A DNA stretch of 51,830 nt from Verrucomicrobiota bacterium (GCA_034660375.1 JAYEIY010000300.1:1-51830); one strand, 5' to 3'; positions 5,667 through 51,647 are shown, counted from the stretch's first letter. Notes: generated by a model from the sequence alone, not told the origin. A program made the numbers and translations.

Positions 5667-5667
5667 A

Positions 5668-9605: not shown

Positions 9606-9607
9606 AT

Positions 9608-10864: not shown

Positions 10865-10887
10865 GCAGAAAAGCTAAAATATATTTA

Positions 10888-20652: not shown

Positions 20653-20726
20653 TTTTTAAGTCTAAATATTCTGTTTGCAGTTGTTTTTTTGAGCAAATAA
20701 TACTAAAAATCATTATGAACGAGTCA

Positions 20727-20821
20727 GTATTTATCTCAAATAAAGGTCAAAATCTCTGATTTTGAACCTAGAAAACCTTTATGAAAAGGGTTTTACTTTT
20801 TAAAAACCTTTTCGTGCAGAG
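20727..20821. repeat. ~94-bp intergenic repeat, copy 1 (partner at 46427..46520, same orientation)
   Basis: gtatttatctcaaataaaggtcaaaatctctgattttgaacctagaaaacctttatgaaaagggttttactttttaaaaaccttttcgtgcagag. It shares blocks of 12, 17, 8, 10 and 8 identical nt with copy 2. It contains three segments (gaaaaccttt / gaaaagggtttt / aaaaccttttc) in which the middle one can pair with either neighbour. Confidence 0.85.
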
Positions 20822-20951
20822 TTTATTTTAAAATGCAATATAAATCTTTACAAAATAAAATAATACCAAAACAAGAAAAAACAAGGAAATTAAATCTGAT
20901 TTCTATAAAGTGAAATAAGTAAAGTAATTTTATAAAAAAGCAAAAAAGAGA

Positions 20952-20979
20952 TTGACCTTTTCCTTTTATATGCTATAAT
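20952..20979 (+). promoter_or_regulatory. Sigma70-like promoter of the giant gene
   Basis: TTGACC (20952..20957), a 16-nt spacer, then TATAAT (20974..20979). An AGGAG RBS at 21025..21029 lies 8 nt before ATG 21038. Confidence 0.6.
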
Positions 20980-21037
20980 AAAAGGTAGTAAAATTTTATT
21001 TGTTAAATTTTTAACATTAATAATAGGAGAAGAAAAG

Positions 21038-24000
21038 ATGATTCGATTTAAAAAGCGAAGTATAGGTTTAACAATTTTATTATGTATGTTGTTAGTGTGT
21101 TTGTCATCATTGTTTGCAGAAGATCCTGATTGGAGTGATAGTCATGACGGTGGAAATGTGGGAAGTATTACTTTAGACGGAGACGGAGCAGGCAGTGTTT
21201 CAGGAACTATAGATTCTTATGGCGGGGAGAATAATGGAGGTGACGTAGATTTCTTTTCTGTTGCTTTTCTTGCAGAGACCTCTTATATACTTAAAAATAG
21301 TGTGTGGGGGAGTGCTTTTAGAATTTATGATACAGATGGAACGACATCAATAAAATCATCATCGGATGATACTTCCTTCAGTACTGCATCAGGAGGAACT
21401 TATTACATCAAAGTCTATGGCGGCTGGGATTGCGGTAAAGGTGATTATACCATTGATATTTCAAAAAATGTAGAAGATGACCACGGAAATACATTTGCTA
21501 CGGTCAAGACGGCAGATATAATAACAGAAAGTGGGATACGTTCTGGTTCTTTGGAAGTAAATGGAGACGAAGATTATTTTAAATTTTCGGGAAGCAATGG
21601 AAATTACTATAAATATAAGATTAGTTCAAATGTAAGTGCCAGTCTTTATAGCTCGTCAGGATCTTATATAACAGGCGGATATGAAAAAATATTTCAATAT
21701 TCGACAGCACGGGATGGAGAGTATGTTTTTAAAGTGTATGGATGGGGAACACAAGATTACAATATCAAATTTTCAGCCGTGCAGTCTTCATCATTTCCTG
21801 ATGCACAGGTATCCTCAGTTGCAGTAAATGCAATTGAGAAAGGACGCGGAGACGTAACGGTTGATCCTGGAGAACAGTTTAAAACAGTATCAATTTTTAC
21901 AAACAATACTAATGATTGGCCATTTGAAATAGATAGTTCTCTGAATATAAAAACTCAGTTAGTCCCGACAGGAGCAGGTAATACAACAAATCTGGGAACA
22001 TACTATTTTAATGGACGCTATAGCGGATATGCCAGTGATTATACTTATTCTAGCTGGTACAATATCTGGCAGTCATCAATAAAATCAGGTTATTATAAAT
22101 TATTTATATCATTTAAAAGAAATAGTTCCTCAGATGAAGTTGATCATCGTTTTTATTTAGACAATATAAAGGTTCAGAATCAAGCTCAGGATACAGATTT
22201 ATGGACAGAAAATTTTGAACACGGCGGAGGATGGACTGGCAGAGATAATACTTGGTATTATTTAGCAGCAGACACAGGAGCAGACAAGGATGCAGTTATT
22301 CAGTCTGTAAAAGTGAATGAAGGAACCTATGCAGCGGCAGGTCCTGAAACAATAGCCGTAGGTGAAAATGTTATAATGTATAGGTATATCAATATAATAG
22401 AGGATGATGCAGTACTGACAGCAGATTATTGGGTTGATGGAGAAAGTAGTAATAATTTTGATGTTTATCTCATACGTGTCTTTAACGATCAGTATCCAAT
22501 TACAATTACAAATGATATAACCGTGCCGGAAGGAACGCCGGCAGGAACATATAACGTAGAGCTTACAGTGGACAGTAATTCTGAAGTCTTTGAATCAGAA
22601 GAAACTAATAATACTTTTACAACGATTTCCGGCAATCAAGTGACTGTAAATGCAAAGTCATATCCCGACCTAATTGTTTCAAGCATTTCTATTGCAACAG
22701 CAAGATCTTTGGATGTTACCGAAGAAGATGAGATTACGGTAAGTTGGACTGTTACTAATCAAGGAGATGTCGCCACAACCGTAATTTCTTCCGAGGGTAA
22801 CTGGGATGACAAGATCTACATAACAGATGATCCAAATGCAGAATGTAACCTACAATATATTACAACAGTTAATTACTCTAATGCTGATCTAGATCCTACA
22901 ACCAGAGGAACTTCCTACACAGTAAATGAAACGATTACACTCCCCGAAAATGCAGTTGGAACTCAATACATTGTAGTAAAAACAGATACCGGCGGAGATG
23001 TCATTGAGGGCAGCAACGAAGGGAATAATACAGAAATTGCTTCTACTCCGTTGGAAATAACCGCAAAAGACAGACCAAACCTGGTTGTAATAGATATGTC
23101 ACTGGATAAATCTTCTTATGAATTGGGAGGAGAGGCAACTCTTACCTACACAATAAAAAATGAGGGAACCGCAGATTCTTCAAAATTGTTTAATGATAGA
23201 ATATTTCTTTCTCAGGATAATACATTTGGATCAGATGTTTATCTCGGAGAAAATGAATATGATACTTATGCTCATGGAGGAAGTAAGGTATTTACTATTG
23301 AGTCTATAGGAACCTATTCGTGGGCAGGAATAGAAACAACAAAAACAGTACCAGCAGAAGGGGGAACTATATCTTTTTCCTATATTGCAGATACAATAGA
23401 ATATGGTAATAGATTGTATTTTTATATTTATGACTCAGAAGAAAATGAAGTACATAGTGCAAGCTGGACTTATGATACAGATTGGGATCAATACTCTTAC
23501 ACACTTACAAAAGGGACATATACCTTTAAATGGAGATATTATCACTCCAATTATTCTAACTCAGGAGTAGCATATCTTGATGACATATCATTTCCAGACG
23601 GTTCTACCGAAGATTTTGAGGGGGTAAGAAGTACTACATGGACACAGGTTGCTGGCGATAACGCATCTTGGGAGATTCTTGACTTGGGAAATGCACCCGC
23701 TCCATTAGTACCAGGAGACTCTTTTGTTAAAACTTATACAGTCACTATACCTGCTGACATAGCTTATGTAGATACAAACTGGATAGCGTTAGAAATTGAC
23801 AATGATGGAGATATTAATGAGGGAGTTTTTGGTGGGGAAGACGATAACGAAATTGTTGGAACGGGGACCACGGGAAATTTTGGGACATCTCTGGAACTTA
23901 CTATCCCAGATCATCCAGATCTAGTGGTTAGTAATATACAACTGAGAAGTGGAGCCACATCCGTATCTTGGGATGAGCAGGTTACACTTCAATGGACCGT

Positions 24001-27000
24001 AACAAATAATGGAGATGAACCTGCAATACCATCTTTAGGATATTATAATTATAATTCCATTTTCGATTATCTTTATCTCCTAGAAAATGCAGATGGAGAA
24101 AGTGATATGACAACATCAAACAGTGTAGTTACTTATCAAATTGGATATGATGATTATCATTATGGGACTTCAGAATCATTTTATAGTGATACTTTATCTG
24201 ACCTATCGCCGGGACAACATATAATTACATGGATATTCCGACGAAACAGTTCCGGTTCTGCAGGGACCAATTCAGCATGGATAGATAAATTTTCATATTT
24301 GGACGCAGGAGGTTCTACTGTTACAGAAGAATTTACAACAGGTATTCCGGATTCCGGTTGGACTACATTTGGAGATGTTAACTGGATTGCCGATGCTACA
24401 ACCGGATATTCTGATAGTCATTCTCTTACAGCAATTGGTTTGGATCATGATCAGTATGCAGGAATCTCTACAACTATTACTACTGGAAATGATGGCTCTG
24501 GAAGTAGTGATATAACTTACCGTTATAAAACATCCACAGAAAATAGTGATAGATTATATGTCTTTATAGATGGTATCCTTCTCCCTGGAGAATCAGTAAC
24601 AAGACTTGCAAAAATAACTGTTCCCCAACAAACAAGCAGTCCAAAAGATATGAAATTTGCTGTATGGACTGATGCAAATTATGACAGAATAAATGAATAT
24701 GATGACAATGACAATAATAAAACGATTGCAACATCAACAGTCTCTGTCAATCAACCAGATTATCCAGATCTGCAAGTTATGAATGTACAACTGGAAAATG
24801 CAGCTACATCTGTCACCTGGGATGAGCAGGTAGTACTTCAATGGACTGTTACAAATAATGGAGATGAACCTGCAATACCCAAATATACAACACAATACAA
24901 TACTCCACACGATTATCTTTATTTACTCAATTCGGATGCAACGACGACAAACATGACAACGTCAAATGAAGAAGCAAATTATTATTATGGATATGACGAT
25001 TCTCACTCTGGTGAATCAGGGGGATGGGTCTCTAATAGATTATATAATTTGCTTCCGGGTAATCATATAATTACGTGGATATTTAAGAAGGATTTTTCTC
25101 TTTCGGGAGGGGATGATGCAGTCTGGATTGATAATTTTACATATCTGGCAAGTGATAATTCTACAACGGTTGTAGAAAAATTCACAGACGGTATTCCCGC
25201 ATCTGGTTGGACTTTATTTGGGAATGTAGATTGGGCATCTGATGCAACAATTGGATATGATGATATATATTGCCTCAAGGCAGTAGGACTTGCAGATAAT
25301 CAATACGCTGGAATGTCTGTTGAAATAACAACGGGTGATGACGGAACTGGAAGCTGTGATGTTGATTATTATTACAAAACGTCTACAGAATCTAATGATA
25401 GACTTTATGTCTTTGTTGATGGAGTATTACTCCCGGGACAATCTGTTCAGCGTGAAAAAACAGTAACAATAGCACATCAAGACTCTGATACCGCAACAAT
25501 GAAATTTGGAGTATGGACAGACGCAACTAATAATATATTTACTGAAGATAATGATGATAATAATAAGACTTTTGCTTCCACAACAGTAACTGTAAATAAA
25601 CCGGATTATCCAGATCTGATTGTGACAAATATTGAAATAGAAGGAAATCCGACATCGGTAGCATGGGGACAGTCTATTACGGCAAATTGGACAATTAAAA
25701 ATCAGGGACTTGCTCCGGCAATTTTGAAGTGGGATGGGAATTCTTATAATTTAACTTGTGACTATCTCTATTTCCTTGAAGAAGATGATGAGATTGCAGA
25801 TATGAACTCTACTGTTACTTCACAAAATTTTGGGTATTACAATTATTATTCAGGAACAGCAGAAACGTTTTATCAGCAAAATGTAACAGGTATCAAGCAG
25901 GGAGAACATACTTTTACCTGGATTTACAGAAAAAACTCTTCTGGTTATGACGGACAGGATACCGTATGGATTGACAATCTTTCCTATACCGCATCTGATG
26001 ACTCAACCGCAACAGAAGATTTTACGACTGGAGTTCCCTCCTCGCCTGCTGACACTTGGTGGAATTTTGGTGATACTCAATGGATTGCGGACTCCGCAAA
26101 TGGTCAGGGAGAAGAAGATAACAATTCAATAAAAGCTACAGGTCTTGACGATAATAAATATGCAGCAGTTAGTTTTAAAACAACAATAGGTAACGCAGGA
26201 TCTGGAACAGGGAATCTCTCTTTCTACTATATGACCTCAACAGAAAGTTATGACAGATTATACTTCTTTATCGATGGAATTATCTATCCAGGAGAATCTC
26301 TTATTCGTTCAAAAACATTTACTGTACCGCAGCAGGATACAGACAACAAAACAATGAAATTAGGGGTTTATACAGATGGAGATTCCTGGCAGAATATTGT
26401 AGAAGAAGATGAAGATAATAATAAATTCATAGGAAGTACATTTACAGCTATAATACCTGATCATGCAGACCTTGTAGCAACTATTAATTCCGTTACCCGT
26501 AATACAAGAGGAGATTTTTATTGGGGAGATGAAGTTACAGTAAATTATACGATCACCAACAACGGGGATTATCCCACCGGAGTTCACTGGGAAGATGATT
26601 TGTACCTTTCCGAAGATCAAATTGAGGGAAGTGATACTTATTTAACAGAAAAAACCTTTAACTATACTACTAGACATTACTACGAAACACAAGATACGTG
26701 GAGTCAAAAAAGTATTGATGTTACAGCCGGAGAGCATAGATTTACGTGGGCATTTAAAAATACCGGAGTACAAAGTTATAATGATGATGATGTCTGGTTG
26801 GATTTTATTCAGTTTCCTGGGGGTGATAATGAAAGCTTTGAGGACGTCTCAGATGGTTTTGACCTTACAGGTTGGATAACAGCAGGAAATATCGGTTGGG
26901 CTCAGGATGGAACTCAGGCATCTTCCGTTGACGGAGGAAGCAAATCTTTAAAAAGCGGAGCCATAGGCTATAATGAATTCTCTGTTGTAAGTATTACGAA

Positions 27001-30000
27001 AACCGTAGATGCGGGAACTCTTACTTACTATACGCGTTTTTCGTGTGAAAATTATGATTATCTCTATTTTTTCATCGACGGAATGCTTTGTCCAGGACAG
27101 TCTTATACGACAGAACAAACATTTACTATGCCTACTTTGGACACAAATCTCAAAAATATGTACGTCATGTTGAAAACAAATAAAGATGATGATTTCAATG
27201 AATACGATGACACAGCAAATAATCTGGTATTTAGCGATGTCATGACTGTAAACTCAACTCCTGCACCTGATTTAGTTGTTTCTGAAATACAGTTTTCTCA
27301 AAACGGAGCACCCGTAGAAGGAGAATATTTCTGGGGAAAATCTCTCGATGTAACATACAAAATTACTAATCAGGGATCGGAAGATTTGATAGGAGTCTGG
27401 AATGACAAATTTGATCTCTATCAGAATGGAACTCATAAAGATCATCTGGGAGAAAAATCCACGACTTCACGCTATGGATCGTGGTCTTCTAATGCAAGCT
27501 GGGCACAACAAATATACACTATCCCGGCAGGGAAACGTCAGTTGCGTTGGAAATTCTATAGAGGACCGAACAGTACGGGCGATAATCATCTTGCATATAT
27601 TGATGATGTCTCGATTGTCGTGGGATATCAAATCTATAATGATACAGATGATAATGAAATAACCAGTGGCTCGGATTCTTCATGGACTGCACCGGAAAAT
27701 GTAGCAGGAAGTCAGACAGGGCTGTATTATTATGATGCAGATAACAACGATACCTATACCACAGGAGAAGATGTTTGGTATGGACATAGCTATAATCGTG
27801 GAGACAGTAATGAAGTAATTTACGACGGAGGAGATGGGTGGACTACTTTTTCTCAATCAGGTATTCAAACAGGACTTTATTATTATGATGTAGATGCAAG
27901 TGGAACTTATACTGTCGGAGAAGATATTTGGGCAGAAGGTGACGATGATGGACATTATACAGACGGAGTGGATACCAAAGTCTATGATGGTGGAGACGGA
28001 TGGGTTGCAGATGATGTTGACGGAAGAAATGACCTCTATTACAGAGATGCGGATTCAAACAATGCTTATACTGTCGGAGAAGATATCTGGAACGGATATT
28101 ATAGCTTCTCCTCCAAAAAAGTTTATGATGGTGGAGATGGATGGACGGTTAGTGGACAGTCGGGAAAACAAACAGACTTATTCTATTATGATGCAGACGG
28201 AAATTCAACGTACTCTGAAGGCGAGGATATCTGGGTTGATGCTCCGATAATTACAGAAGATTTTGAAAGCGTAACTTCTCCTGCATTACCTGGAGCGATA
28301 GCTGATGCATTCGGTGCCTGGACAAGCAATACTACAAACGGAAATGATGATGTCTGGGTAACGGTCGGTTCAGAGGAAAGTCCAGATGGTCACGACAGTA
28401 ATATTGCTGCTCAAATTGGTGCAAATATAGGCACAGATCAAGCAGCCGAACTTGTTACTGATGTTGATTTTGCAAAGTCAACACGAATAAAATTCTGGAG
28501 AAAAATGGTTATAGACAACTCTGATGATAATCTCTATTTCAATGTCTATGACAAATTAGCACAGGGCGAATTTGTTTGGAGAGAATATACCACAAACACT
28601 ATAGATAACTATTTTGATGGGACTTATCAGTTGCGTGTAACAACAGACTGCGATGATACTATAGAAGAGTACGATAAAGAAGATAACAATGATCTTGAAA
28701 CCAATATTACTCTAAGAGCTCCAAATTTGGCAGATCTTACCGTTACATCACTTGTCAGTTATGATGCAAATGCATATACAGGAGAAGATTTTACATTTAC
28801 GTATACTCTGAATAATCTTGGAGGCATAGCCGCTACATCTACAATATATGACAAGTATTTCTTTGTTAATGTGTCCACCAATACTTCATATCCAGTAAGT
28901 TCAAGTGCAAACAATAATTACAAAAGTATTAGTGATGATATTGCCGGAGAAAGCAGTCTTCAGGTCACAGCCACACTGGAAGTAGGGAATATCCCGGAAG
29001 GAGAGTATTATTTAAGAATTTATACCGATACAGGAAATTATAATAATGATCCGGAAAGCTATCTTTTAGGCGGACAATATTATTCTGGCGGATACATTGT
29101 TGAATCCTGTGATGATAAGTATATTGATCCCAACTACGCCGTACAGACAAATAACAATATATTCAATACCGATGACACTCAAAAAATAAATGTAACCTTC
29201 CATACATCAGATTTGATTACTACAAATATAAGTGTTCCTGAAGATGCCGCATGGGGAACAACTGTTCAAGTCTCCTATACTATGCTTAACGCAGGTCCAA
29301 GCTCAACTCCGGCAGGAATTGCAAATATCCCGGCAAATGTGCCGTTTTACAATAAAGCATGGTTTTCAGAAGACGGTGTAAACTGGGGTAGTTATACCAC
29401 CACAACCGTTTCTGAAGAATCTGCAGGAGAAGGAGATTATACTGCTGCATCTGGTGGTATCTCACACAGTCAGTCTTCTGGGATAGAAATATCCAAAACA
29501 GTACCTGCCGAAGGAGGAACAATCTCATTCAAATATCGAACGTCTTCAGAAAGTGGATATGACTATCTAAGATTTTATGTTATTAATGATTCTCAGGAAA
29601 CAATTCATAGTCAGGCTTGGGCAGGAAATGGTTCATGGACTACATATTCTTACAATGTCGTTGACCCTGGAACATATACTTTTAGATGGAGATATACTAA
29701 AGACGGAAGCGTTAATAGCTATAATGACACAGTTTATCTTGACGATATAAGTTTCCCCGATGGAAGTGCAGAAACCTTTGAAACGGGAACTTTTAGCGGA
29801 AGCTGGACACAGGTAGCAGGGAGTAATGCCGATTGGACCATAGAACAATACATATTCCCATTACCTGTTGATCAGACAGCCATACGTACCATGGGAGTGG
29901 CAATTCCATCCAATGCTACCGAAGGATATATCAAAATTGAACTTGACTATAACAATAATGCAGGCGAATTTAATCAGGCAAGAGATAATAACATTACAAC

Positions 30001-45000: not shown

Positions 45001-46345
45001 AAATGAAGATATAGTCCTTAACGATTGGACATTTGATGATCCAGATGAAAGTGATGAACTAAACGAAGATACCGAAAAAATGATTGTAAAATGGTATAAA
45101 TTGGGAACAAGGGGTGATTTTACGGAAGTTTCTGGAGAAAATACCCTTACTCTCGCAGCATCTAACTTCGTTCCAGGTGACCAGATATACGTAAAACTCT
45201 GGCCCTCAGACGGAGAAACTCCTGATCCAGAAAATACCTCAACGGGTGTTTCAGCAACTATTACGCTCGCAAATTATCTAGACTCTGTAACTGTAGGTCC
45301 AACAGGAGCAAAAACTGGAGACAATCTGAGTTATGGAAAAACCTGGCATAATTCGCAGATCGCTGCAACCGAATATGATATAAATTGGGAAAAAGATGGA
45401 GTATCACAACCTTCTAGCGAAACAATTCTTAACGCAGATACAAATAGAGGTGAAATTTGGACAGCCGAATTAACAGCAAAAATATCTGATACCAGAAGTG
45501 GTTATAGATATGCAAGCCCTGTATCTGCAGATATTACTATTCAGGATACTGCTCCGCCAGCTCCTACAGCAGCTGCATTCGATGAAATAACTCCATCCGT
45601 TGCACAGAATATTAATCTCCAAAATGTAGTTGTAGGAACTGATGTAGACGGAGATGTAATAACAAAAGAATACCAGTGGACAAACAGTGTAGACCAAGAT
45701 GGTAATCCCAATTGGATAGCTAGAAGTCTCGTTTCTGGAATACAACTCCCTCAGGGACAAATTGGGTCGCAAGATGATTGGTATGCACGTGTAAGAAGTA
45801 CTACTCCAAATGCTCCCGTAGGACTTGGAAATGATGCCGTATCAGACTGGTATAATCTGGCCTATCCAGTTCGCTTTGGAGAACGGCTGAATGTAGAAAA
45901 AGGATGGAATCTTGTAAATGTTCCATATAACGAAGTAACCAAAACAGAGACATTCTTTACAGATGATTTTGATTCCGAGATTCTAACAGGAAAGCAATGG
46001 TACTGGAATGCATCTATACAGGAATACGAGGTATATAACTCCGATGACCTAGTAACACCTCAAAAAGGAATATGGCTCTACTCCAAAAACACAGATGCGA
46101 AAAAACTCAGACCTCTACGCGGGAATAACTCTGGAGACGGAGCAGTGATTCTGTATCCGGGATGGAATCTAATTGGTTCTCTTGTAGACTGTAATCCTCC
46201 AGTAGAAGCCTTCGGCAATATATGGTATTGGGAACCAACCGAATTTATCTATAAAGCTGTACAAAACGGTGAGCAACTACAAAAAATGAAAGGATATTGG
46301 ATGTTCTATAATGGAGAGGATGAACCAACTATTAACCTCAAGTAA
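21038..46345 (+). CDS. Giant (8,435 aa) secreted/surface multi-domain protein: PPC x2, ~24 CARDB-like modules with nested jelly-roll inserts, then a mosaic C-terminal third
   Basis: Uninterrupted ORF with a Sec-type signal MIRFKKRSIGLTILLCMLLVCLSSLFA|ED. PPC-like domains (GDVDFFSV...YYIKVYG; GDEDYFKF...YVFKVYG). CARDB-like modules run from 22661 to ~36890 (YPDLIVSSISI...TVTNQG...EGNNT and others). The C-terminal third contains a PPC-like domain, a TIG-like domain, a CarboxypepD_reg-like domain, propeller-like W-rich repeats, Cys-rich repeats, a poly-Asp run, DUF11-like and FN3 domains, TSP3-like DxDxDG motifs, a TIM-barrel glycosidase-like domain, VCBS/cadherin-like modules (VNDPP) and a GWNL-motif C-terminal domain. 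Confidence 0.9.
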   Translation: MIRFKKRSIGLTILLCMLLVCLSSLFAEDPDWSDSHDGGNVGSITLDGDGAGSVSGTIDSYGGENNGGDVDFFSVAFLAETSYILKNSVWGSAFRIYDTDGTTSIKSSSDDTSFSTASGGTYYIKVYGGWDCGKGDYTIDISKNVEDDHGNTFATVKTADIITESGIRSGSLEVNGDEDYFKFSGSNGNYYKYKISSNVSASLYSSSGSYITGGYEKIFQYSTARDGEYVFKVYGWGTQDYNIKFSAVQSSSFPDAQVSSVAVNAIEKGRGDVTVDPGEQFKTVSIFTNNTNDWPFEIDSSLNIKTQLVPTGAGNTTNLGTYYFNGRYSGYASDYTYSSWYNIWQSSIKSGYYKLFISFKRNSSSDEVDHRFYLDNIKVQNQAQDTDLWTENFEHGGGWTGRDNTWYYLAADTGADKDAVIQSVKVNEGTYAAAGPETIAVGENVIMYRYINIIEDDAVLTADYWVDGESSNNFDVYLIRVFNDQYPITITNDITVPEGTPAGTYNVELTVDSNSEVFESEETNNTFTTISGNQVTVNAKSYPDLIVSSISIATARSLDVTEEDEITVSWTVTNQGDVATTVISSEGNWDDKIYITDDPNAECNLQYITTVNYSNADLDPTTRGTSYTVNETITLPENAVGTQYIVVKTDTGGDVIEGSNEGNNTEIASTPLEITAKDRPNLVVIDMSLDKSSYELGGEATLTYTIKNEGTADSSKLFNDRIFLSQDNTFGSDVYLGENEYDTYAHGGSKVFTIESIGTYSWAGIETTKTVPAEGGTISFSYIADTIEYGNRLYFYIYDSEENEVHSASWTYDTDWDQYSYTLTKGTYTFKWRYYHSNYSNSGVAYLDDISFPDGSTEDFEGVRSTTWTQVAGDNASWEILDLGNAPAPLVPGDSFVKTYTVTIPADIAYVDTNWIALEIDNDGDINEGVFGGEDDNEIVGTGTTGNFGTSLELTIPDHPDLVVSNIQLRSGATSVSWDEQVTLQWTVTNNGDEPAIPSLGYYNYNSIFDYLYLLENADGESDMTTSNSVVTYQIGYDDYHYGTSESFYSDTLSDLSPGQHIITWIFRRNSSGSAGTNSAWIDKFSYLDAGGSTVTEEFTTGIPDSGWTTFGDVNWIADATTGYSDSHSLTAIGLDHDQYAGISTTITTGNDGSGSSDITYRYKTSTENSDRLYVFIDGILLPGESVTRLAKITVPQQTSSPKDMKFAVWTDANYDRINEYDDNDNNKTIATSTVSVNQPDYPDLQVMNVQLENAATSVTWDEQVVLQWTVTNNGDEPAIPKYTTQYNTPHDYLYLLNSDATTTNMTTSNEEANYYYGYDDSHSGESGGWVSNRLYNLLPGNHIITWIFKKDFSLSGGDDAVWIDNFTYLASDNSTTVVEKFTDGIPASGWTLFGNVDWASDATIGYDDIYCLKAVGLADNQYAGMSVEITTGDDGTGSCDVDYYYKTSTESNDRLYVFVDGVLLPGQSVQREKTVTIAHQDSDTATMKFGVWTDATNNIFTEDNDDNNKTFASTTVTVNKPDYPDLIVTNIEIEGNPTSVAWGQSITANWTIKNQGLAPAILKWDGNSYNLTCDYLYFLEEDDEIADMNSTVTSQNFGYYNYYSGTAETFYQQNVTGIKQGEHTFTWIYRKNSSGYDGQDTVWIDNLSYTASDDSTATEDFTTGVPSSPADTWWNFGDTQWIADSANGQGEEDNNSIKATGLDDNKYAAVSFKTTIGNAGSGTGNLSFYYMTSTESYDRLYFFIDGIIYPGESLIRSKTFTVPQQDTDNKTMKLGVYTDGDSWQNIVEEDEDNNKFIGSTFTAIIPDHADLVATINSVTRNTRGDFYWGDEVTVNYTITNNGDYPTGVHWEDDLYLSEDQIEGSDTYLTEKTFNYTTRHYYETQDTWSQKSIDVTAGEHRFTWAFKNTGVQSYNDDDVWLDFIQFPGGDNESFEDVSDGFDLTGWITAGNIGWAQDGTQASSVDGGSKSLKSGAIGYNEFSVVSITKTVDAGTLTYYTRFSCENYDYLYFFIDGMLCPGQSYTTEQTFTMPTLDTNLKNMYVMLKTNKDDDFNEYDDTANNLVFSDVMTVNSTPAPDLVVSEIQFSQNGAPVEGEYFWGKSLDVTYKITNQGSEDLIGVWNDKFDLYQNGTHKDHLGEKSTTSRYGSWSSNASWAQQIYTIPAGKRQLRWKFYRGPNSTGDNHLAYIDDVSIVVGYQIYNDTDDNEITSGSDSSWTAPENVAGSQTGLYYYDADNNDTYTTGEDVWYGHSYNRGDSNEVIYDGGDGWTTFSQSGIQTGLYYYDVDASGTYTVGEDIWAEGDDDGHYTDGVDTKVYDGGDGWVADDVDGRNDLYYRDADSNNAYTVGEDIWNGYYSFSSKKVYDGGDGWTVSGQSGKQTDLFYYDADGNSTYSEGEDIWVDAPIITEDFESVTSPALPGAIADAFGAWTSNTTNGNDDVWVTVGSEESPDGHDSNIAAQIGANIGTDQAAELVTDVDFAKSTRIKFWRKMVIDNSDDNLYFNVYDKLAQGEFVWREYTTNTIDNYFDGTYQLRVTTDCDDTIEEYDKEDNNDLETNITLRAPNLADLTVTSLVSYDANAYTGEDFTFTYTLNNLGGIAATSTIYDKYFFVNVSTNTSYPVSSSANNNYKSISDDIAGESSLQVTATLEVGNIPEGEYYLRIYTDTGNYNNDPESYLLGGQYYSGGYIVESCDDKYIDPNYAVQTNNNIFNTDDTQKINVTFHTSDLITTNISVPEDAAWGTTVQVSYTMLNAGPSSTPAGIANIPANVPFYNKAWFSEDGVNWGSYTTTTVSEESAGEGDYTAASGGISHSQSSGIEISKTVPAEGGTISFKYRTSSESGYDYLRFYVINDSQETIHSQAWAGNGSWTTYSYNVVDPGTYTFRWRYTKDGSVNSYNDTVYLDDISFPDGSAETFETGTFSGSWTQVAGSNADWTIEQYIFPLPVDQTAIRTMGVAIPSNATEGYIKIELDYNNNAGEFNQARDNNITTSELLTFTIPDAPDMVTEVNEEHPISLPTIITPYTNFNYSWFTLNQKPGNASTSTENTSTWYDYFYLSSDNTFNSTTDLNVFSDGHSIDLAVDAYNEASGTASLSSNIPAPGTYYMFIRSDATSVKMEKNDEDYGTDNNTYQAETTVEVKCIDLEPYNLVVPSQVANEAVSLSWSVQNNGNGDLPSGKSVYQKVYLYSSENLQEGLAEVWGGAYYSSGCATGQTFTQTVDLSLPDIDQGLYYVFVKADADSVVTEYDSSTALSAEDNNVYRRLGQIEITVPDLIVKSISLPETMTIGAETSITVTVQNQNSGSADPNWYDTIYLQKIDLTSGAMLSVTTYTHTEAIAPGAEKTYTATFTVPSSFTRGQYRVKVKVDGSENVNEVIEDNNELIYPTAINDSNQITMNACDLLPTSITVADAVMEGNYLNVQWSVENNGEGITPKSWYNLIYISDVNIAGGASWSTMTSDPQTKTYGYTSSLETGLANGENSTFNQDCYIYNQDYTDNKIYVYVYVDSNNQIYEYYAGRTSGEENNTLQKTTAVELGYFDLTLVPVGDATATVTIPSTGSYKTDQQDVEISWIVKNEGNVTTSATWYDKIYLSINKNESTSGDTYLGQFTRPNNLESNGTYTQIVNVDMPTWDSAWEGQTFYLKVFTDSTNYIAENNTTPDDEQDNFAVYTLNLTKELAADLQVSAVSAPVNPNGGEQITVDYTLLNDGELDVTGTWYDTIQLIDSGNSVVTTLGTFQHYTVNKTEGATTGWESISVPVSAGRHTIAFVYYRTESYSGGDNKAGLDNITLPLSGGNQSYDFGGGVIAPFISSQTDGLNDDWTVVSDAATTPSLNVGDSVILTYTGDFVDGNILFDANIDAHYLAFYEDYKLPAGESRDFSKTVSLPATLSGTDYEIRVKADYHSSYSYNNRVSEPGYEDNNELDSTVFDIAPAPYPDLKFIGDITRTSPTDDADVMTGELVAVSWTVENDNTTYTGTDITADWYDKVYLSTDNTLDTGSDQLVATVRRYDTLADDANYTASATFRLANGSGSTKYIFVVTDSNGEVFEGSTDPTTNTNGPLTLIINGSPYPDLVPVAGGITSPDTIDNNSEMTLYWKVENAGNGNLTGEWYDYIYLSTDQIIDSGDTYLGRKKHTISNFPYTSSAESYTDSNSNGQYDEGESFTDSNGNGVWDDDVPTSFYTKFLEIEIPREVSGQFYFILQTDKDADIFESNGGGTAETNNILAKGIEITVAPSPNLIVSSATIEDIGTRDDITKYHLDVEWTIKNNGNGSTGTAQWYDDIYLCTTDNQYGTKTKMTRVGNQAYLVPGETYTQTTEIVIPWEFSEGDYYVLIYTDAKDQVYEYQGEADNWGSGTTAGGDPVHIEMRIQPLPYLSILSSYNGEGHETNPDARVPAPTSEGPNEHDIILEKEIFAPGEKIRAKWTSRNTGNANTYKGRWDDAAALSKDPYYNRSEDIWLGSHKYHSSGALPPYRVGRQTNDDGQHRFTEFETLEAPIPTNIEHGEYYLLFISDTHGFATTGGSGDFLNRATRGNVGVYRNKITIEETVPADLAVEASTIVPAKVAYKTGDTMSFSYRVENVGYASTRSRSWRDYFYLSTDNNDTDSTGDRRIGSGSYRGSLSIIPNPETANDDWFYTKTISYTFPIDMVSQETTYYLKVNVGNGENEGYGGSDHKDNNRKASIVSFTVTPADASDLTPIALSVTTAADIEEVDCTVAPPTEFEGKIYKLDNIVGSIHSDWDGIEKGSITRFDGTSWQTNSGMTEMQPVKVTWIVENKSNAAATTNKGVWTDVIYYYENDNSLNLHSFEQIRYTGGALLSGENYSCSYTGNLPENIAESVHFVIKTDTNAKVYESDKMNNSYVGTEVITNAIMRTDLKLDSHSVQTGSPFASGASLTYTYIVANPTNYDTWPSEKNWTDRIYISQDSTMNSGKRKVAEYDRNTGLAAGESYTVTKTIDLGIDMSGTYYLAVEVDDNSNVTELNEISNNDNYDSPDSFNVTLTGTSDLTVTSIDLTTTDPLIPFEARGDRTGVLSGTRISGLKYTVQNSGGEATGTKSWTDYIYISRDTFLDNSDKRVTYANQTRNLASSESYTQTDVSFTIPRGYGGDLFIIVKTDASGKVYERGSENNNDLCVGSNDYFTSIVPLQGNPETPATNYDLQVYDVVVTDPNRTALPIQPGQNIEVSWKVKNTGTGNIQSNSWTDGIYLSSDNVWDIDDQYVGSKIHNVSNLNSFDSETGTPYSTKSVTLPIPAVDEGEYFVIVRADIRQNLIEANEDNNATASAIDNKIDTAVPFLDDDPDDGENTVLETEGEVTDDIVAEGEYYYRVDVEGGKDLLVELTCTDSASFTELFVSYDSMPDPVHSDFYFSNHFRPNQKIVIPGTQSGSYFILVRGDYVPNPPADFTLKVKYLVFETDTIEPSFGGNNGRVTITLNGAKYTNETQVYLTHDNDTPGDTGDDIQVQAEEVFFKSPTKIFATFNLKGQTKTSPSDGEGGFVKDWNIMTTDPQEAEYRGRAVGDTLEDCFSLKTGLGGNLSHHLIAPSMVRPTGEYFAWIEYGNNGDQDIEAPLFYFRAAVKAGVKVRLTQNTPWKEDFIEILGINQNGPADRLPPGSAFAIPISFQIPESGTRQLQITVLNKDTQQIDYEKLAENLSNRNVTEADFTDMMDYLKSHYGTTFADFATALNNDVLRLWKQDDESFDVRDLLSFAINRGYENAISTVSGFVRNKDTRSVLAGVKMIIMDDDDNIYSDTTSAIGEFRIESVPPGTYNLYPEGYMLDPAISVVIDYDTDATGIVALAVATLEDEAIEDITTSQKSSDSKPSISQSPSGDTHILWTRAGELWHSVWDGVNNNWTDLDDDGTDLEGYKITYKNTQGESIEVEGSNPQLIPFPNADKNAAEEDKDGIAVMYKYKKSELGNIVGKTQNKYKYKYILGQPIYEGENKTGQYEWSEPGDLTNSNYGDSFATVQKDPDEDKILTLTLRRDWNIDDDDDVYFLSTAVTPTYNTRSLRGTDWELRLDIYDATHDLMRGCRGCPETNDNTVEVGQKAYEKEGHFTIPSWVPVIKGKWGFEVEGGYALELQQCFVTAKGSIDAAILASERLKFTGKAKLGAYWAVENDKKKTEEPCEWQFKKAQLTLGIGGEGKLPGYVIELLGGAAKLDLGIKVSSEISIGFTWKAANFPAMPTAGDLTLTIGLGPYGEAGLLWDLIEASIEGTGSIETSYNLSKGLKLEKFAIEVSASGSCCWKSASISKSWEWPSDRRGAGRTKTVTNNKITITETRSNGGVFESETMIYKKRVLIGRDSVYDGDGVVLIDGASTSNRVADIDPDSAANSDNSEILAVWSEHSGNLMTDCGHSLKLISYNNTEGLWDAQSDLAGPSHYNYSSKIVFDSNDDPWVFWARATTEGININRPLQEIINAENNTDIYYAKRTSRGNWSEPTLLTSMEGMDIKPNVAAGPSGTLTVTWENHPDEDSTEKDKIYAMIYDGSDWNTPEAISVFSRADEKPLATNASVAYNGTTPIVAWAHNYSEETNEGGVDGTASFYRIASVFHDGTNWTSPEFFHQTPPPTRYYIPTEEGESQRLSPEMAEGYEMYLTEQRSFERGFLSSIPVPDACCQKDCPKGQYKDDECVCKCPEGTTWDSEKKECLADDCPEGQHKNEAGECVANECPQGQHKNADGECVDNDNDDDDDDDDYGGDGGEDPPEPPGWEPSGGAKVTAGESADPNEKHGTPGVGDQNLISSDKLLSYTIMFENMPDAETNASIVIVTDELPAGLDMRRFRLGDFAFADTVIEGPENSPFFNQTMELDNGMNLRVSGTISPSTRIAKWEFRTIDPASGEIPVNPDNGFLPPNTYQTDDDGNFIYKTDDNDDFVYETDDEGNTVVDENGDPVKIKLKTGIGEGRVTFTIIPDTDNVVDGDLIENEAIIIFDSNEAIVTNKTRHTISSAATYLSEVTIENVVEPSGNDPRIDADMITVTWTLEDGSDALDLNPEGAGYDIYYSINGENFEPWILKTKETSEILDVTRGYTYSFYSVARDATGVEEARPNAADAIVRILHQTIDILGTVSYIGKNPGYTGNVVVQIFNEDKPSRGFAEGTQVGSDLTITTAGAYSATSLTGEERYYHVRAWVDNDGDGVVDADESYADTTNVDPVGQMSPITVNLTINDIDADSDSLPDWWEILYFSDLDETTYGDPDLDGVPNIVEYNNDTDPNDDTDKPEKIATTGTTSVKAGFLYDGDTEYNIRGVVYQPVATSADPGNASEYTNEVLDRDIEKLADLGVNTILTVDELPDTTLLELCENENIKVIVGYPIDNSADISLDATKTAILQDFTDYVTLLKDSSAVLMWSIGDGSRDSDDWYNLLSMMAWVVYDTEGAEYRPVTAIREFNTIAQDDTKAPGIDLWGIKYLGNENFTTARPSTTLFADYANLNADKPMWISSYGVDSFDSAADTGNGKDNEISQAETAVSLYRTILSNSAVAGTYNSSLDIKIAGTPDADSTGISANVSFKDSNDNGIYDIGEAAWADEVNSAANVYEDTYDVMLVSGSGIDSSYNTKTGTSLGIAYYDADIDNEYDNGEILWADRHIDEEFWRHTDGLVELTDPNDSDNYTVEIAESNVYNEGVDTLVIGASLPDKTVGRSADIAFYDADESAEWESGEPIWQDKVIGTNNVYDDGIDTLIVSDSLADADVGISTGIYLADDDEDEKYTDAEALWSKGVPKTLGSTYAEYLDQWWKKDTGTNDVQDIDDTEVDSEFFGLFKFDADEVTLLPKVVFYALRNEWSNSSAPVDLQTVVNINEGETAKFFLRTFGDNLTYTLVRDGRDGTSGGLYGDVTGWDSSGQQMLTYTTANTNPDFVGTDVIDYTVTDNRRSTTTYGAVIINVSGVNDPPEITNIFLTPGSEITEDNDILASYTFYDVDGDPDSSTVKWYKEDNRTWTEIVSGLNTLPSNETTRSQNWKVVVTPDDGELIGTAEENVFSIINRLPTASGLALVHNAYFANEDIVLNDWTFDDPDESDELNEDTEKMIVKWYKLGTRGDFTEVSGENTLTLAASNFVPGDQIYVKLWPSDGETPDPENTSTGVSATITLANYLDSVTVGPTGAKTGDNLSYGKTWHNSQIAATEYDINWEKDGVSQPSSETILNADTNRGEIWTAELTAKISDTRSGYRYASPVSADITIQDTAPPAPTAAAFDEITPSVAQNINLQNVVVGTDVDGDVITKEYQWTNSVDQDGNPNWIARSLVSGIQLPQGQIGSQDDWYARVRSTTPNAPVGLGNDAVSDWYNLAYPVRFGERLNVEKGWNLVNVPYNEVTKTETFFTDDFDSEILTGKQWYWNASIQEYEVYNSDDLVTPQKGIWLYSKNTDAKKLRPLRGNNSGDGAVILYPGWNLIGSLVDCNPPVEAFGNIWYWEPTEFIYKAVQNGEQLQKMKGYWMFYNGEDEPTINLK
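23906..28720 (+). repeat. Five tandem ~270-285-aa super-modules inside the giant ORF (unit starts 23906, 24755, 25601, 26456, 27260)
   Basis: Each unit opens P-D-[YH]-[PA]-D-L-x-V and WTVTNNGDEPA-like. It is interrupted by two jelly-roll-like domains (HIITWIFRRNSSGSAG..AWIDKFSY; GWTTFGDVNWIAD...SDRLYVFIDG). It then resumes LLPGESV...MKFAVWTDA...DDNDNNKT. Units 1 and 2 share 57/62 nt at 23969..24030 versus 24818..24879 (hand alignment). Confidence 0.8.
27712..28240 (+). repeat. Four ~50-aa repeats (LYYYDADxNxTYTxGEDIW...VYDGGDGW) nested inside super-module 5
   Basis: QTGLYYYDADNNDTYTTGEDVW..IYDGGDGW; QTGLYYYDVDASGTYTVGEDIW..VYDGGDGW; NDLYYRDADSNNAYTVGEDIW..VYDGGDGW; QTDLFYYDADGNSTYSEGEDIW. 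Confidence 0.8.
43507..44157 (+). repeat. Second, more divergent set of YYDAD/GExxW repeats near the C-terminus
   Basis: VSFKDSNDNGIYDIGEAAWADE; IAYYDADIDNEYDNGEILWADR; IAFYDADESAEWESGEPIWQDK; IYLADDDEDEKYTDAEALWSKG. Confidence 0.65.
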
Positions 46346-46379
46346 ATTATACTTTTATTATTGTGAATAAATAAAATTT

Positions 46380-46410
46380 ATGATTGGCAGGCGAGACACC
46401 TGCCAATCAT
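46380..46410. terminator. 12-bp stem hairpin 35 nt after the giant-gene stop (possible terminator; no downstream U-tract on the + strand)
   Basis: atgattggcagg-cgagaca-cctgccaatcat is a perfect inverted repeat. The flank is T-rich only when read on the minus strand (aaattttattt). Confidence 0.45.
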
Positions 46411-46426
46411 TATGTAGAGGAGAAAA

Positions 46427-46520
46427 GTATTCTTCTCAAATAAAGTTTAAAATCTCTGATTTTGACCTAGAAAGTCTGCATGAAAAGGTTTTTGCTTTTT
46501 AAAAAACTTTTCGTGGAGGA
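46427..46520. repeat. ~94-bp intergenic repeat, copy 2 (partner at 20727..20821)
   Basis: gtattcttctcaaataaagtttaaaatctctgattttgacctagaaagtctgcatgaaaaggtttttgctttttaaaaaacttttcgtggagga. Roughly four-fifths identical to copy 1 by hand alignment. Confidence 0.85.
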
Positions 46521-46568
46521 TTTAAGTACGAACTATTGGCATTTATTCTATTTGCTATGATCTTTTCT

Positions 46569-47049
46569 GACAATTAAAAGCTAGGCAAAGCCTTATTCCC
46601 TATCGGGAGCCTCAGCCCTTGCTTTGCAAGGTCGCTCTCTCCAGAACTCATCGGTTTGAAGTTGACGAACACGCAACTCAGATTCCCTTTTTTATCTTTA
46701 ATTTGCTAGAAAAACCTGAAAGTCGGATAAAGCGTACACTACACTATTTTTGCGAAAAAGTGTTCGCTTTATCCGACTTTCAGTCGACTACAAACTGTTT
46801 TATCTTTTTTCAGAGTATCTCTGTTTTGCAAGAGTCTCGTTTGTAGTCGCCCCGTTTTGCGGGGCGTTAGCATGATTAAAGTGTTCGCTTTATCCGACTT
46901 TCAGAAGAAAAAGGGAAAGTAGTTGCTCGACAATTCAAATGCCTTGCTCAAAACAAAATATACTCGCAACTTAGCTTCCCTATCGTGGATAAAAAAAGGG
47001 AATCTGAGTTACTCGATAACTTGGAGTTCTGGTGCTCTGCACAGCTTTT
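46569..47049. repeat. ~480-bp nested inverted/direct-repeat element (candidate structured RNA, foldback/MITE-like relic or invertible segment)
   Basis: Outer arms: aaaagct (46577) / agctttt (47043); ccagaactc (46641) / gagttctgg (47024); aactcagattcccttttttatc (46675..46696) / gataaaaaaagggaatctgagtt (46988..47010). Inner: ctgaaagtcggataaagcgtacac (46716..46739) pairs with gtgttcgctttatccgactttcag (46760..46783). A perfect second copy of that 24-mer lies at 46881..46904. Also cgactacaaac/gtttgtagtcg (46785/46839) and the GC hairpin cgccccgttttgcggggcg (46849..46866). Confidence 0.7.
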
Positions 47050-47294
47050 AATTTAACAAAAAATCTTGCAAAAAATCAAGACTCTTTAACTCAATGAGTT
47101 AATGGCTATTTTATCCCTTTAACCTCAAAAAAAAGTGTTTTTGAAGTTCAACTGCGTTATTTAGGATTAATCATTCGTACATTTGCCATTCCCGTTGCTC
47201 ATGTGAAATCAGCCTCATTGTAAGCAAAGTGTGGCTAAAAAAGCTCTTAGTGGACTTTCTAAACAACAAAGGTCTTCGCTTTCATCAAAATCGA

Positions 47295-48785: not shown

Positions 48786-48889
48786 AAAAAAAATCCTATA
48801 GACCTTTAAAAGTAGAATTAAGCAACTAAAATAATAATACATTGTTAATGGTAACCTAGTTGATAATAATAATAAAATCAATAATAATA

Positions 48890-51243: not shown

Positions 51244-51647
51244 TGCCACTAGGAAATGGATAATCGCTCACTTAATAGAGAGGAAAGTCCGGACACCACA
51301 GGACAGGAAGCCCGGTTGAAAAGCCGGATATCATAAACTATATTTTATGGTCAGGAAAGTGCCACAGAAAATATACCACCCCGCACCTACTTTGGTTTGA
51401 CAGGAAAAAAGACTCTAAGTCAAACTAAAGTAGGTGCGGGGTAAGGGTGAAAAGGTAAGGTAAGAGCTTACCGCTCTGAGAGAAATCAAAGAGGCAGGGT
51501 AAACCCCTTCCGGTGCAAGATCAAATAGGGAATAAGGCGCTGTCCGTGCCGTTATTAGTTCCGGGTTGGATCGCTTAGTCAAATGATTATCATTCTCGAA
51601 TCTTTGATTCGTGAATACAAAATCCGGCTTATAGTTTCCTAGGGGCA
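51244..51647 (+). ncRNA. rnpB: RNase P RNA, bacterial type A
   Basis: P1 pairing tgccactaggaaa / tttcctaggggca. P4 strands GAGGAAAGTCCGGAC (51280s) and ACAAAATCCGGCTTATAG (51617..). Conserved AGTGCCACAGAAAATATACC and GGGTAAGGGTGAAA. A long P12-like 23-bp hairpin lies at 51379..51441. Confidence 0.9.

Follow-up and report, generated by a model that had tools for sequence, protein, structure and literature searches.

How does a bacterial protein of about 0.93 MDa leave the cell that makes it, and what holds it in place afterwards? This question is raised by a 51,830-nucleotide stretch of DNA from a Verrucomicrobiota bacterium (GCA_034660375.1 JAYEIY010000300.1:1-51830; the whole stretch is hereafter called the window), in which a single giant open reading frame (ORF) occupies positions 21,038 to 46,345. 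A preliminary description of this DNA had noted one ORF of 8,435 codons behind a near-consensus promoter, an AGGAG ribosome-binding site and a classical signal peptide, and had found no feature that would anchor the product or carry it across the outer membrane. In the analysis reported here, the reading that we favour, with a probability of roughly 0.55, is that the gene encodes a Sec-exported, non-enzymatic surface fibre, the domain types pointing to a fibre or adhesin role. What is new is the family to which the C-terminal domain of the protein belongs, here called GWNL/GYW; the giant gene itself adds one example to a known class of huge secreted proteins. Feature coordinates are collected in Table 1.

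The gene is genuine and intact. Its frame begins with ATG and has one stop codon, the terminal one, and there is no N in the entire window. With a stop expected in 6.9% of codons from the ORF's own base composition, an open frame of 8,435 codons would arise by chance with P ~1e-263, and the computed mass of the product agrees with the size first estimated. The start signals noted earlier were likewise found: the promoter-like site agrees with the consensus at 11 of 12 positions and is the top-scoring site in a scan of 20600–21100, the AGGAG sequence lies where a ribosome-binding site is expected, and the N-terminus, MIRFKKRS-IGLTILLCMLLVCLSSLFA-EDP, has an n-region, an h-region and an Ala at position -1. 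Membrane topology was judged by a Kyte-Doolittle hydropathy scan with a 19-residue window and a cut of 1.4; amino acids (aa) 9–27 are the sole hydrophobic segment of the giant protein, scoring 2.56 against at most 1.32 elsewhere. A GC-rich hairpin beyond the stop codon may terminate transcription or stabilise the mRNA; no T-run follows it on the + strand.

Could such a frame nevertheless have arisen through misassembly, or belong to a pseudogene in decay? Its modular, repetitive make-up would fit such an explanation, as would the fact that its nearest homologues are known solely as fragments that span their contigs. We consider it very improbable, given an open frame far longer than chance allows, strong start signals and collinearity with homologues over 5,800 aa. 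No direct DNA repeats within the ORF are near-identical, the longest measuring 125 nt (82% identity) and 96 nt (72%); because the internal repeats are short and diverged, collapse or expansion during assembly is unlikely. The GC content at third codon positions (GC3), 0.27, also agrees with that of the neighbouring genes gyrA, macB, galK and lptF/G (0.25–0.30). Overall GC is higher in the giant ORF (0.38–0.42) than in the flanks (0.32–0.35), and horizontal acquisition was considered on this ground and dropped: GC3 is that of the neighbours, and the excess sits at codon position 2, where it reflects amino-acid composition.

The preliminary description saw no recognisable anchoring feature in the protein, and this is where it has to be revised, since the C-terminus belongs to a large, undescribed extracellular family and is a candidate attachment or binding module. 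The GWNL/GYW domain follows the pattern GWNLxSxP ... WxW ... Y ... GxGYWxY and is internally duplicated (alignment A1). An exhaustive phmmer search with aa 8250–8435 against 1.84 billion representative proteins returned 329 clusters at E<=1e-3, 37 of them at E<=1e-10, and the resulting profile matches the giant protein at E 5e-51. Among the best 150 of the 329, the match ends no more than 15 aa from the C-terminus in 129 (86%), in host proteins of 112–4,754 aa, and 89% of 119 profile matches place the domain at the extreme C-terminus. The partner domains are all extracellular (MBG_2, Big_9, cadherin-like, Flg_new_2, Peptidase_C25 with its propeptide, Peptidase_M10, PKD, cohesin and Calx-beta); the host proteins are acidic, with a median pI of 4.4, and 56 of the 86 that are apparently full-length have a hydrophobic N-terminus. 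Their named sources include metagenome-assembled genomes (MAGs) labelled Kiritimatiellaeota and Proteobacteria and, among archaea, Thermoplasmata, Altiarchaeales, Euryarchaeota and Methanoregulaceae. No Pfam-A or NCBIfam model matched the region when the giant protein and ten family members were scanned per library, precomputed Pfam lists of 123 further members hold known partner-domain families only, and we found no relevant literature on GWNL. AlphaFold2 with a 23-sequence alignment confidently predicts an all-beta structure (pLDDT, the per-residue confidence score, 89.6; predicted template-modelling score, pTM, 0.84), for which Foldseek found no PDB match (best E 0.15, TM<0.25) and none in BFVD.

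A second, less biased sample of the family was obtained by scanning metagenomes with a hand-made degenerate DNA motif and confirming the matches with a hidden Markov model (HMM). It comprises at least 120 metagenomic loci, at least 115 of which are HMM-confirmed, with GC contents of 0.20–0.70 among the matches listed. Within these listed matches, two or three GWNL/GYW paralogues lie together at 18 loci, and of 132 ORFs whose 3' end is intact, 86 have the domain within 20 residues of the stop codon, the remaining 35% carrying it N-terminally or internally. Proteins that consist of a signal peptide and the domain alone also exist (e.g., P0247, 198 aa). When the ORFs of 120 loci among the matches listed were clustered all-versus-all, the clusters consisted solely of antisense shadow ORFs and further large secreted proteins; no sorting enzyme or transporter recurred as a neighbour.

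Several individual loci are described here for their arrangement. At six of them (L083, L110, L112, L119, L142 and L144) the domain genes cluster, either in groups of two or three paralogues inside 15 kb or beside genes of more than 1,800–3,000 aa; at L083, a contig from a Kiritimatiellaeota MAG, the domain gene stands between genes of >3,000, 1,803 and >3,300 aa. At L084 there is a 4-nt overlap between the domain ORF and the end of a DUF5060/Apiosidase gene, and this pair may be a split glycosidase-plus-domain fusion.

These data bear on the idea that GWNL/GYW is a true sorting or secretion tag, analogous to the C-terminal domain of the type IX secretion system (T9SS) and read by dedicated machinery. 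Its position at the extreme C-terminus of unrelated secreted proteins would fit such a role, as would its presence on Peptidase_C25-type proteins in place of the T9SS tail and the presence of several paralogues per locus. The N-terminal and internal copies, the proteins made of signal peptide plus domain only, the occurrence of the domain in MAGs of single-membrane archaea (Methanoregulaceae, Thermoplasmata) and the lack of a recurring sorting-enzyme-like or transporter-like neighbour argue otherwise, and we regard a sorting tag as improbable. Because the domain also occurs N-terminally and as a stand-alone unit, we read it as a binding or anchoring module rather than an obligate sorting tag. 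Specifically, we propose that GWNL/GYW is a mobile extracellular module, found preferentially at the C-terminus, and more like a surface-layer or carbohydrate-binding anchor, which makes it the best candidate for the attachment module of the giant protein. Attachment to the envelope of the producing cell itself, and not to some target, is a tentative proposal. If the domain is an envelope or glycan anchor, this would explain how many such proteins are retained at the surface and would provide a new annotation marker. A wider claim, that GWNL/GYW is a new surface attachment or secretion-targeting module, with a fold absent from the PDB, that displays diverse extracellular proteins in bacteria and archaea, is more doubtful still; if true, this would amount to a new display system for proteins from 200-aa stand-alone forms to a 0.93-MDa fibre, and no cargo larger than that of the giant gene would be known for it.

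The greater part of the protein is a CARDB array. Pfam CARDB (PF07705) matches in three pieces (E 5e-22, 2e-40 and 2e-18; 78, 138 and 67 bits, cut-off 22.7), and an HMM derived from the protein itself marks 33 CARDB segments in aa 414–5279. A count of 33 modules was rejected because inspection revealed that this HMM counts insert-split CARDBs twice; merging the split modules gives about 25, in keeping with the two dozen or so first reported. The inserts of ~150 aa have no Pfam match. Roughly six tandem units of 283 aa, each a CARDB module plus a 150-aa insert, occupy aa 678–2214 (23069–27679), where the corresponding DNA repeats are spaced 846–849 nt apart and are 72–82% identical over 96–125 nt, which suggests a recent expansion of these units within the giant gene. 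A distinct acidic repeat of ~51 aa (YYDAD-N-Y-GE-IW) follows with four copies at aa 2223–2420, and an HMM made from the copies located four more at aa 7498–7707; it matches no known family. The region ahead of the array, aa 28–413, has no Pfam match even at E<=1 and is collinear with a protein from a Lentisphaeria MAG (P0002) at 27% identity.

The only collinear homologues of the giant protein, P0001 and P0002, both come from Lentisphaerae/Lentisphaeria MAGs. P0001 is 43% identical to aa 4494–6485 (~2,000 aa), while P0002 is 27–36% identical to N-terminal parts and 34% identical to aa 3226–5845 (~2,600 aa). They measure 1,944 aa on a 5,834-bp contig and 3,704 aa on an 11,114-bp contig, respectively, and run off both ends; because they fill their entire contigs, they are fragments of similarly large genes. 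P0002 apparently has only one or two of the 283-aa units against about six in the giant protein, and the number of units would thus seem to vary between lineages. A metagenome scan with aa 7236–8435 yielded no close relatives. The preliminary description had sensed a flavour of the Planctomycetes–Verrucomicrobia–Chlamydiae (PVC) group in the protein and its GWNL domain; the source of the two homologues agrees with this, as does the best named relative of the GWNL domain, from a Kiritimatiellaeota MAG, and, judged from sequence, a PVC affinity is plausible.

Beyond the CARDB array, the protein carries a cassette of two conserved modules, A and C, that it has in common with 16 other large proteins (2,000–4,950 aa), including proteins of cyanobacteria and Acidobacteria, proteins with Planctomycete-like N-termini and others from metagenomic sources. 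The modules are ~1,000 aa apart in all 16; module A is common to P0001–P0017. The module types proposed earlier fared unevenly here. The PPC domain of module A is weak in the giant protein (E 7e-4), but 9 of 11 homologous segments match the family, and against the PDB the segment matches a PPC domain (E 7.5e-7) and collagenase collagen-binding domains (E 1e-4). The TIG-like assignment found support in one of 11 homologues, and the CarboxypepD_reg-like one just passes the Pfam gathering threshold (32.4 bits against 32.3), with SpaA matching too. About four CPxGQ...GEC copies, visible in the translation, bear out the Cys repeats, and the part called DUF11-like is DUF7619 (Table 1), the DUF11 repeat model remaining below its cut-off.

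Between the two modules lies a region (aa 5783–6600) that the giant protein has in common with P0001 and P0003 only, and whose Trp-containing repeats resemble propeller blades. It has no sequence match in the PDB or Pfam, and neither a PDB sequence search with aa 5280–6700 nor a profile search with alignment A2 returned anything. An AlphaFold2 model from a three-sequence alignment reached a pLDDT of 40.7, with aa ~6320–6490 at 60–82; everything that Foldseek matched to this low-confidence model was a beta-propeller (CylK, sialidases, Kelch, GH43), at low TM-scores. The propeller-like character ascribed to this region is thus plausible, the model being suggestive in what it matches and low in confidence.

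In 7 of the 16 cassette proteins (P0004, P0005, P0009, P0011 and P0014–P0016), the modules enclose YD/RHS repeats, with 11–15 motif matches each, and several of these have CARDB arrays upstream of the cassette. Their modules are 22–34% identical to aa ~5170–5700 (A) and ~6700–7060 (C) of the giant protein. The giant protein has the flanking A/C scaffold and the ~1,000-aa spacing in common with these RHS/YD exoproteins; where they have a YD/RHS shell, the giant protein, P0001 and P0003 have the unrelated propeller-like region. A regular-expression search found 0 YD motifs in the giant protein, P0001 and P0003 likewise have no YD between the modules, and Pfam RHS_repeat does not match the giant protein. 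Moreover, RHS polymorphic toxins and teneurin-like proteins carry a C-terminal toxin after the shell, whereas the giant protein ends in immunoglobulin (Ig)-like repeats and the GWNL/GYW domain, and no toxin family of Pfam or NCBIfam matched it; no secretion genes adjoin P0003. We conclude that the giant protein is not an RHS protein, though it is built on the same flanking scaffold. The two alternative fillings of the cassette, RHS shell and propeller-like region, hint that giant exoproteins have a modular scaffold in common.

The stretch between the cassette and the GWNL/GYW domain opens with an acidic segment (aa 7105–7212) that has two DxDxDG motifs and DSLPDWWE and aligns with P0290; the motifs are in line with its earlier designation as TSP3-like, which a Pfam TSP3 match does not back, and the FN3 modules that had been listed were not detected by Pfam. 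The following TIM-barrel-like region (aa 7215–7790) is weakly similar to glycoside hydrolase family 2 (GH2; Pfam Glyco_hydro_2_C E 0.083, PDB entries 5t98 E 0.06 and 6ncy E 0.1), the PDB alignments spanning both catalytic motifs. In these weak alignments, WSIGDG (aa 7338) is opposite GH2 WSxGNE, with the acid/base Glu replaced by Gly, and SSYGVD (aa 7429) is opposite TEFGAD, with the nucleophile Glu replaced by Ser. If the GH2 homology is real, both catalytic glutamates would have been lost; in these alignments, the glycosidase-like TIM barrel of the preliminary description is without either. A PDB search with aa 6690–8435 returned nothing, and a homology search with aa 7100–8260 was dominated by Ig-repeat proteins and gave little information on TIM-like homologues. 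The Ig-like modules (aa 7776–8265), with which repeats of P0018 and P0289 align, had been called VCBS/cadherin-like; what they match, weakly, is Big_9 (E 3e-4) and tandem-95 (E 3e-6), both under their cut-offs.

A giant carbohydrate-active enzyme (CAZyme), that is, an active polysaccharide-degrading exoenzyme with a catalytic TIM barrel and carbohydrate-binding modules in the remainder, would be one way to read this region. The two best PDB matches and the sole Pfam hint for aa 7215–7480 are all GH2, the low-confidence model of the middle region resembles sialidase and GH43 propellers, and cell-wall degradation has been proposed for giant proteins of Omnitrophota (10.1101/2023.11.21.568195). 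All these similarities are below significance, both GH2 alignments replace both glutamates, and no CAZyme family model of Pfam or NCBIfam passes its threshold; we therefore give an active enzyme little chance. Family matches in the giant protein are limited to CARDB, PPC, CarboxypepD_reg/SpaA, DUF7619 and Big_9, and no enzyme or toxin domains were found in it.

With regard to export, motif, Pfam and NCBIfam scans agree with the preliminary description that RTX repeats, LPXTG, an autotransporter, PEP-CTERM and a T9SS C-terminus are all missing. The RTX motif GGxGxD occurs 0 times in 8,435 aa and HemolysinCabind has no Pfam match; LPxTG and LPxT[GAN] occur 0 times; and neither a PEP-CTERM-like nor another tripartite tag was found, there being no NCBIfam match and no C-terminal hydrophobic segment. 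No NCBIfam sorting-signal model matches anywhere in the protein at E<=0.05, and Pfam has none either. Pfam also finds no autotransporter, and in the model of the C-terminal 166 aa the strands are 3–7 residues long and no outer-membrane barrel in the PDB matches. The T9SS C-terminal domain models TIGR04183/PF18962 do not match the giant protein or ten family members (NCBIfam E<=0.05, Pfam E<=0.1). Because LpxI, LptF/G and an OEP/TolC protein are encoded in the flanks, the host has an outer membrane with lipopolysaccharide. A secretion system suited to the giant protein was not found in the window: no genes of the type II (T2SS), type V (T5SS) or type IX systems lie there, and no T2SS or pilus genes are among the 19 flanking ORFs scanned (21 kb upstream, 5.5 kb downstream).

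The only transport system in the window is a HlyD-HlyD-MacB-OEP operon (Table 1). Ahead of it lies a 316-aa ORF that weakly matches Formyl_trans_N. As a complete tripartite system 7 kb upstream and on the same strand, this operon could be imagined to export the giant protein in a type I-like manner, as RTX giant adhesins are exported. This can hardly be the case: the ATP-binding cassette (ABC) protein is MacB-type (MacB_PCD plus FtsX) and not of the exporter type found in type I secretion systems (T1SS), the giant protein has a Sec signal peptide and neither RTX repeats nor a T1SS-type C-terminus, five opposite-strand genes, gyrA among them, lie between the operon and the giant gene, and TolC cannot pass a folded 0.93-MDa periplasmic protein.

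Another possibility is that no outer-membrane step is needed, the protein being a periplasmic or envelope scaffold within an enlarged periplasm rather than surface-exposed. The protein has a Sec signal only, with no known outer-membrane targeting feature, and T2SS, T5SS and T9SS genes are missing from the window, as this idea would predict. Nevertheless, CARDB, PPC, DUF7619, Big_9 and all GWNL/GYW partner domains are typical of extracellular proteins, and an extended protein of 0.93 MDa would be hard to accommodate in the periplasm. We consider such a scaffold quite unlikely.

Our working hypothesis is therefore the surface fibre. In this model, the ~0.93-MDa protein would be exported through Sec by its single N-terminal signal peptide and, outside the cytoplasmic membrane, would form a long and highly acidic fibre at the surface, with binding and not catalysis as its function. 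The ~25 CARDB beta-sandwich modules, many with inserts that may be lectin-like, would form the extender, and the C-terminal third would supply binding modules (PPC, the propeller-like region, DUF7619, a glycosidase-derived barrel without catalytic glutamates and the Ig-like repeats). The Trp-rich GWNL/GYW terminus would provide a non-covalent attachment to a layer of glycan or protein, on the cell's own envelope or on a target surface. The outer membrane would be crossed by a general, type II-like pathway encoded elsewhere in the genome; such a pathway suggests itself because the giant genes of Omnitrophota are flanked by T2SS genes (10.1101/2023.11.21.568195; 10.64898/2026.06.07.730766). It is important to note that several observations weigh against this model. 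The adhesin role is deduced from domain types only, and ~60% of the C-terminal third is without a confident fold assignment, including aa 5783–6600 with its pLDDT of 40.7. The description of the barrel as an inactive glycosidase rests on insignificant GH2 alignments (E 0.06–0.1). With 35% of GWNL/GYW copies N-terminal or internal among the matches listed, a terminal position alone is not evidence of anchoring. Finally, the window encodes no outer-membrane translocation machinery, so the protein may instead be periplasmic.

Table 1 Coordinates of the giant gene, the parts of its product and other features of the window
Feature	Position	Strand	Details
Giant ORF	21038..46345	+	8,435 sense codons + stop; product 930.5 kDa, pI 4.1
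Direct repeat ~100 nt, upstream copy	20726..20826	+	Brackets gene
Sigma-70-type promoter-like site	20952..20979	+	TTGACC-16 nt-TATAAT, TG extension (extended -10); consensus match only
AGGAG ribosome-binding site	21025..21029	+	8 nt 5' of ATG; read from sequence
Sec-type signal peptide, aa 1-27	21038..21118	+	KKR / 19-residue h-region / LFA-ED; hydropathy; cleavage site by eye
N-terminal region, aa 28-413	21119..22276	+	Two PPC-like D-x-D-[FY]-F motifs by eye
CARDB array, aa 414-5279	22277..36874	+	~25 modules, ~nine split by ~150-aa jelly-roll-like insert
Four repeats of ~51 aa, aa 2223-2420	27704..28297	+	L-Y-Y-Y-D-A-D-x-N-x-x-Y-x-x-G-E-D-I-W; DNA repeat family D1 + HMM
Cassette module A, aa 5290-5782	36905..38383	+	PPC, TIG-like, conserved stretch, helical stretch, CarboxypepD_reg/SpaA (aa 5711-5782)
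Middle region, aa 5783-6600	38384..40837	+	Propeller-like blades around Gly-rich all-beta insert
Cys-rich CPxGQxK...GEC repeats, then poly-Asp run, aa 6601-6690	40838..41107	+	~4 copies; direct from translation
Cassette module C, aa 6696-7100	41123..42337	+	DUF7619 + beta-rich stretch; Pfam DUF7619, 54.6 bits
Acidic TSP3-like stretch, aa 7105-7212	42350..42673	+	DNDGDG, DSLPDWWE, DPDLDG; motifs by regex
TIM-barrel-like region, weakly GH2-like, aa 7215-7790	42680..44407	+	Weak evidence; four YYDAD-type repeats inserted at aa 7498-7707
Tandem Ig-like modules, aa 7776-8265	44363..45832	+	~100 aa each; K-W-Y-K motif
C-terminal GWNL/GYW domain, aa ~8285-8435	45890..46342	+	Duplicated ~65-aa unit, 7 invariant Trp
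Perfect 12-bp GC-rich hairpin	46380..46410	.	35 nt past stop codon; dG -19 kcal/mol, z -5.3
Direct repeat ~100 nt, downstream copy	46426..46525	+	Brackets gene
AbiL-type defence pair	1385-3332	-	AbiLi (428 aa, E 1e-101), AbiLii/RloB (148 aa, E 2e-15)
Two overlapping ORFs, 168 and 171 aa	4661-5666	+	N- and C-terminal parts of AAA_15/AAA_21 (AriA/GajA-like) ATPases
Tripartite efflux operon	7017-14200	+	HlyD-like 862 aa (unusually long), HlyD-like 418 aa, MacB-type ABC 666 aa (fused), OEP/TolC 439 aa
PDDEXK_2 'transposase'-family gene	15525-16439	-	Flanks gyrA
AAA-ATPase_like + PDDEXK_9 gene	19093-20652	-	Flanks gyrA, immediately upstream of giant gene
538-aa protein, hydrophobic N-terminus	47295-48911	-	Convergent with giant gene; HD_5 (HD-GYP type) E 0.008, below cut-off; GTGYP motif
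Bacterial RNase P RNA, class A	51248-51647	+	214 bits, full length

The giant gene and its promoter are enclosed by a pair of ~100-nt repeats in the same orientation with a core that is ~87% identical. The 17-mer AAAATCTCTGATTTTGA within the repeat occurs at two sites in the window, both inside the copies, against 0.07 expected, and the copies share a two-hairpin fold (z -4.1 and -1.8); the pair may represent insertion borders or an intergenic repeat element. Downstream of the giant gene, ~950 nt (46346–47294) contain no ORF longer than 75 aa, and Rfam finds nothing there; AGTGTTCGCTTTATCCGACTTTCAG occurs in this interval at ~46759 and ~46881, with its reverse complement at ~46719, and could form a long hairpin. 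The convergent gene that follows encodes a 538-aa protein which, from its sequence, may be a degenerate phosphodiesterase of cyclic di-GMP; regulators of this type control surface adhesins in other bacteria. Elsewhere in the window, the AbiL pair adjoins genes for a helix-turn-helix protein and a Gp49-like protein (269–1287) that resemble a toxin-antitoxin module, the two overlapping ORFs at 4661–5666 are probably one frameshift-split gene, and neither the PDDEXK_2 gene nor the AAA-ATPase_like/PDDEXK_9 gene matches a PADLOC model. No tRNA was found in the window. An exact match to its GyrA protein is not on record, and scanning a genome collection with GyrA gave matches of just ~50% identity, to Nitrospirota, Zixibacteria and other unrelated phyla, which carry no information on taxonomy or synteny.

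How do the giant protein and its terminal domain compare with known systems? Like the T9SS C-terminal domain (TIGR04183/PF18962), GWNL/GYW is a small all-beta terminus of unrelated secreted proteins, C25 peptidases included, with several paralogues per region. It differs in being twice as long and internally duplicated, in matching no T9SS model, in occurring also N-terminally, internally, alone and in archaea, and in having no machinery linked to it. RTX giant adhesins such as LapA, SiiE, MpIBP and BapA are exported by a T1SS and have RTX repeats, an uncleaved C-terminal signal and no Sec signal. The giant protein resembles them in its tandem beta-sandwich extender, in having ligand-binding modules near one end and in its strong acidity; unlike them, it has a Sec signal peptide, 0 GGxGxD motifs and no T1SS-type partners (ABC protein, membrane fusion protein, outer-membrane protein), the nearby ABC protein being MacB-type. 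Despite a similar extender-plus-binding logic, it has none of the defining features of that class.

The preliminary description had likened the protein to the giants of Omnitrophota, with which it has in common a giant ORF, domains of attachment and carbohydrate type and mostly unannotated sequence. The Omnitrophota giants, of Archaeovorin and Dockerin types (10.1101/2023.11.21.568195; 10.64898/2026.06.07.730766), have many transmembrane helices, SecA-DEAD domains and adjoining T2SS genes (10.1101/2023.11.21.568195) and are larger than 30,000 aa. By comparison, our protein is 4–17 times smaller and, by the hydropathy scan, has one hydrophobic segment rather than many helices; no piece of it has a Pfam match to SecA_DEAD, the SecA preprotein-binding domain, C39 or S8, although very divergent SecA copies might escape such a search, and the window has no T2SS. 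Its place would be in a minority class, 8.6% of the Omnitrophota long-protein catalogue, whose members have just a signal peptide (10.64898/2026.06.07.730766). The analogy is therefore weak, and the hallmarks of that style are not those of this protein.

The giant protein also resembles the huge secreted proteins (>5,000 aa) of PVC-type bacteria and neighbouring phyla. Huge proteins are reported to be enriched in Lentisphaerae, Planctomycetota, Omnitrophica and Elusimicrobiota, and surface attachment is the main bacterial class among those that are not non-ribosomal peptide synthetases (PMC11573180). The giant protein agrees with the PVC-type proteins described there in size class, in a signal peptide without transmembrane helices, in beta-sandwich, cadherin-like and DUF11-type content and in the surface attachment proposed for them, and its nearest homologues come from Lentisphaerae MAGs. 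Its combination of a CARDB array, a YD-free cassette, a barrel resembling an inactivated glycosidase and a GWNL/GYW end is undescribed among them. The giant gene is a further example of this known, poorly understood class of huge secreted PVC-type proteins.

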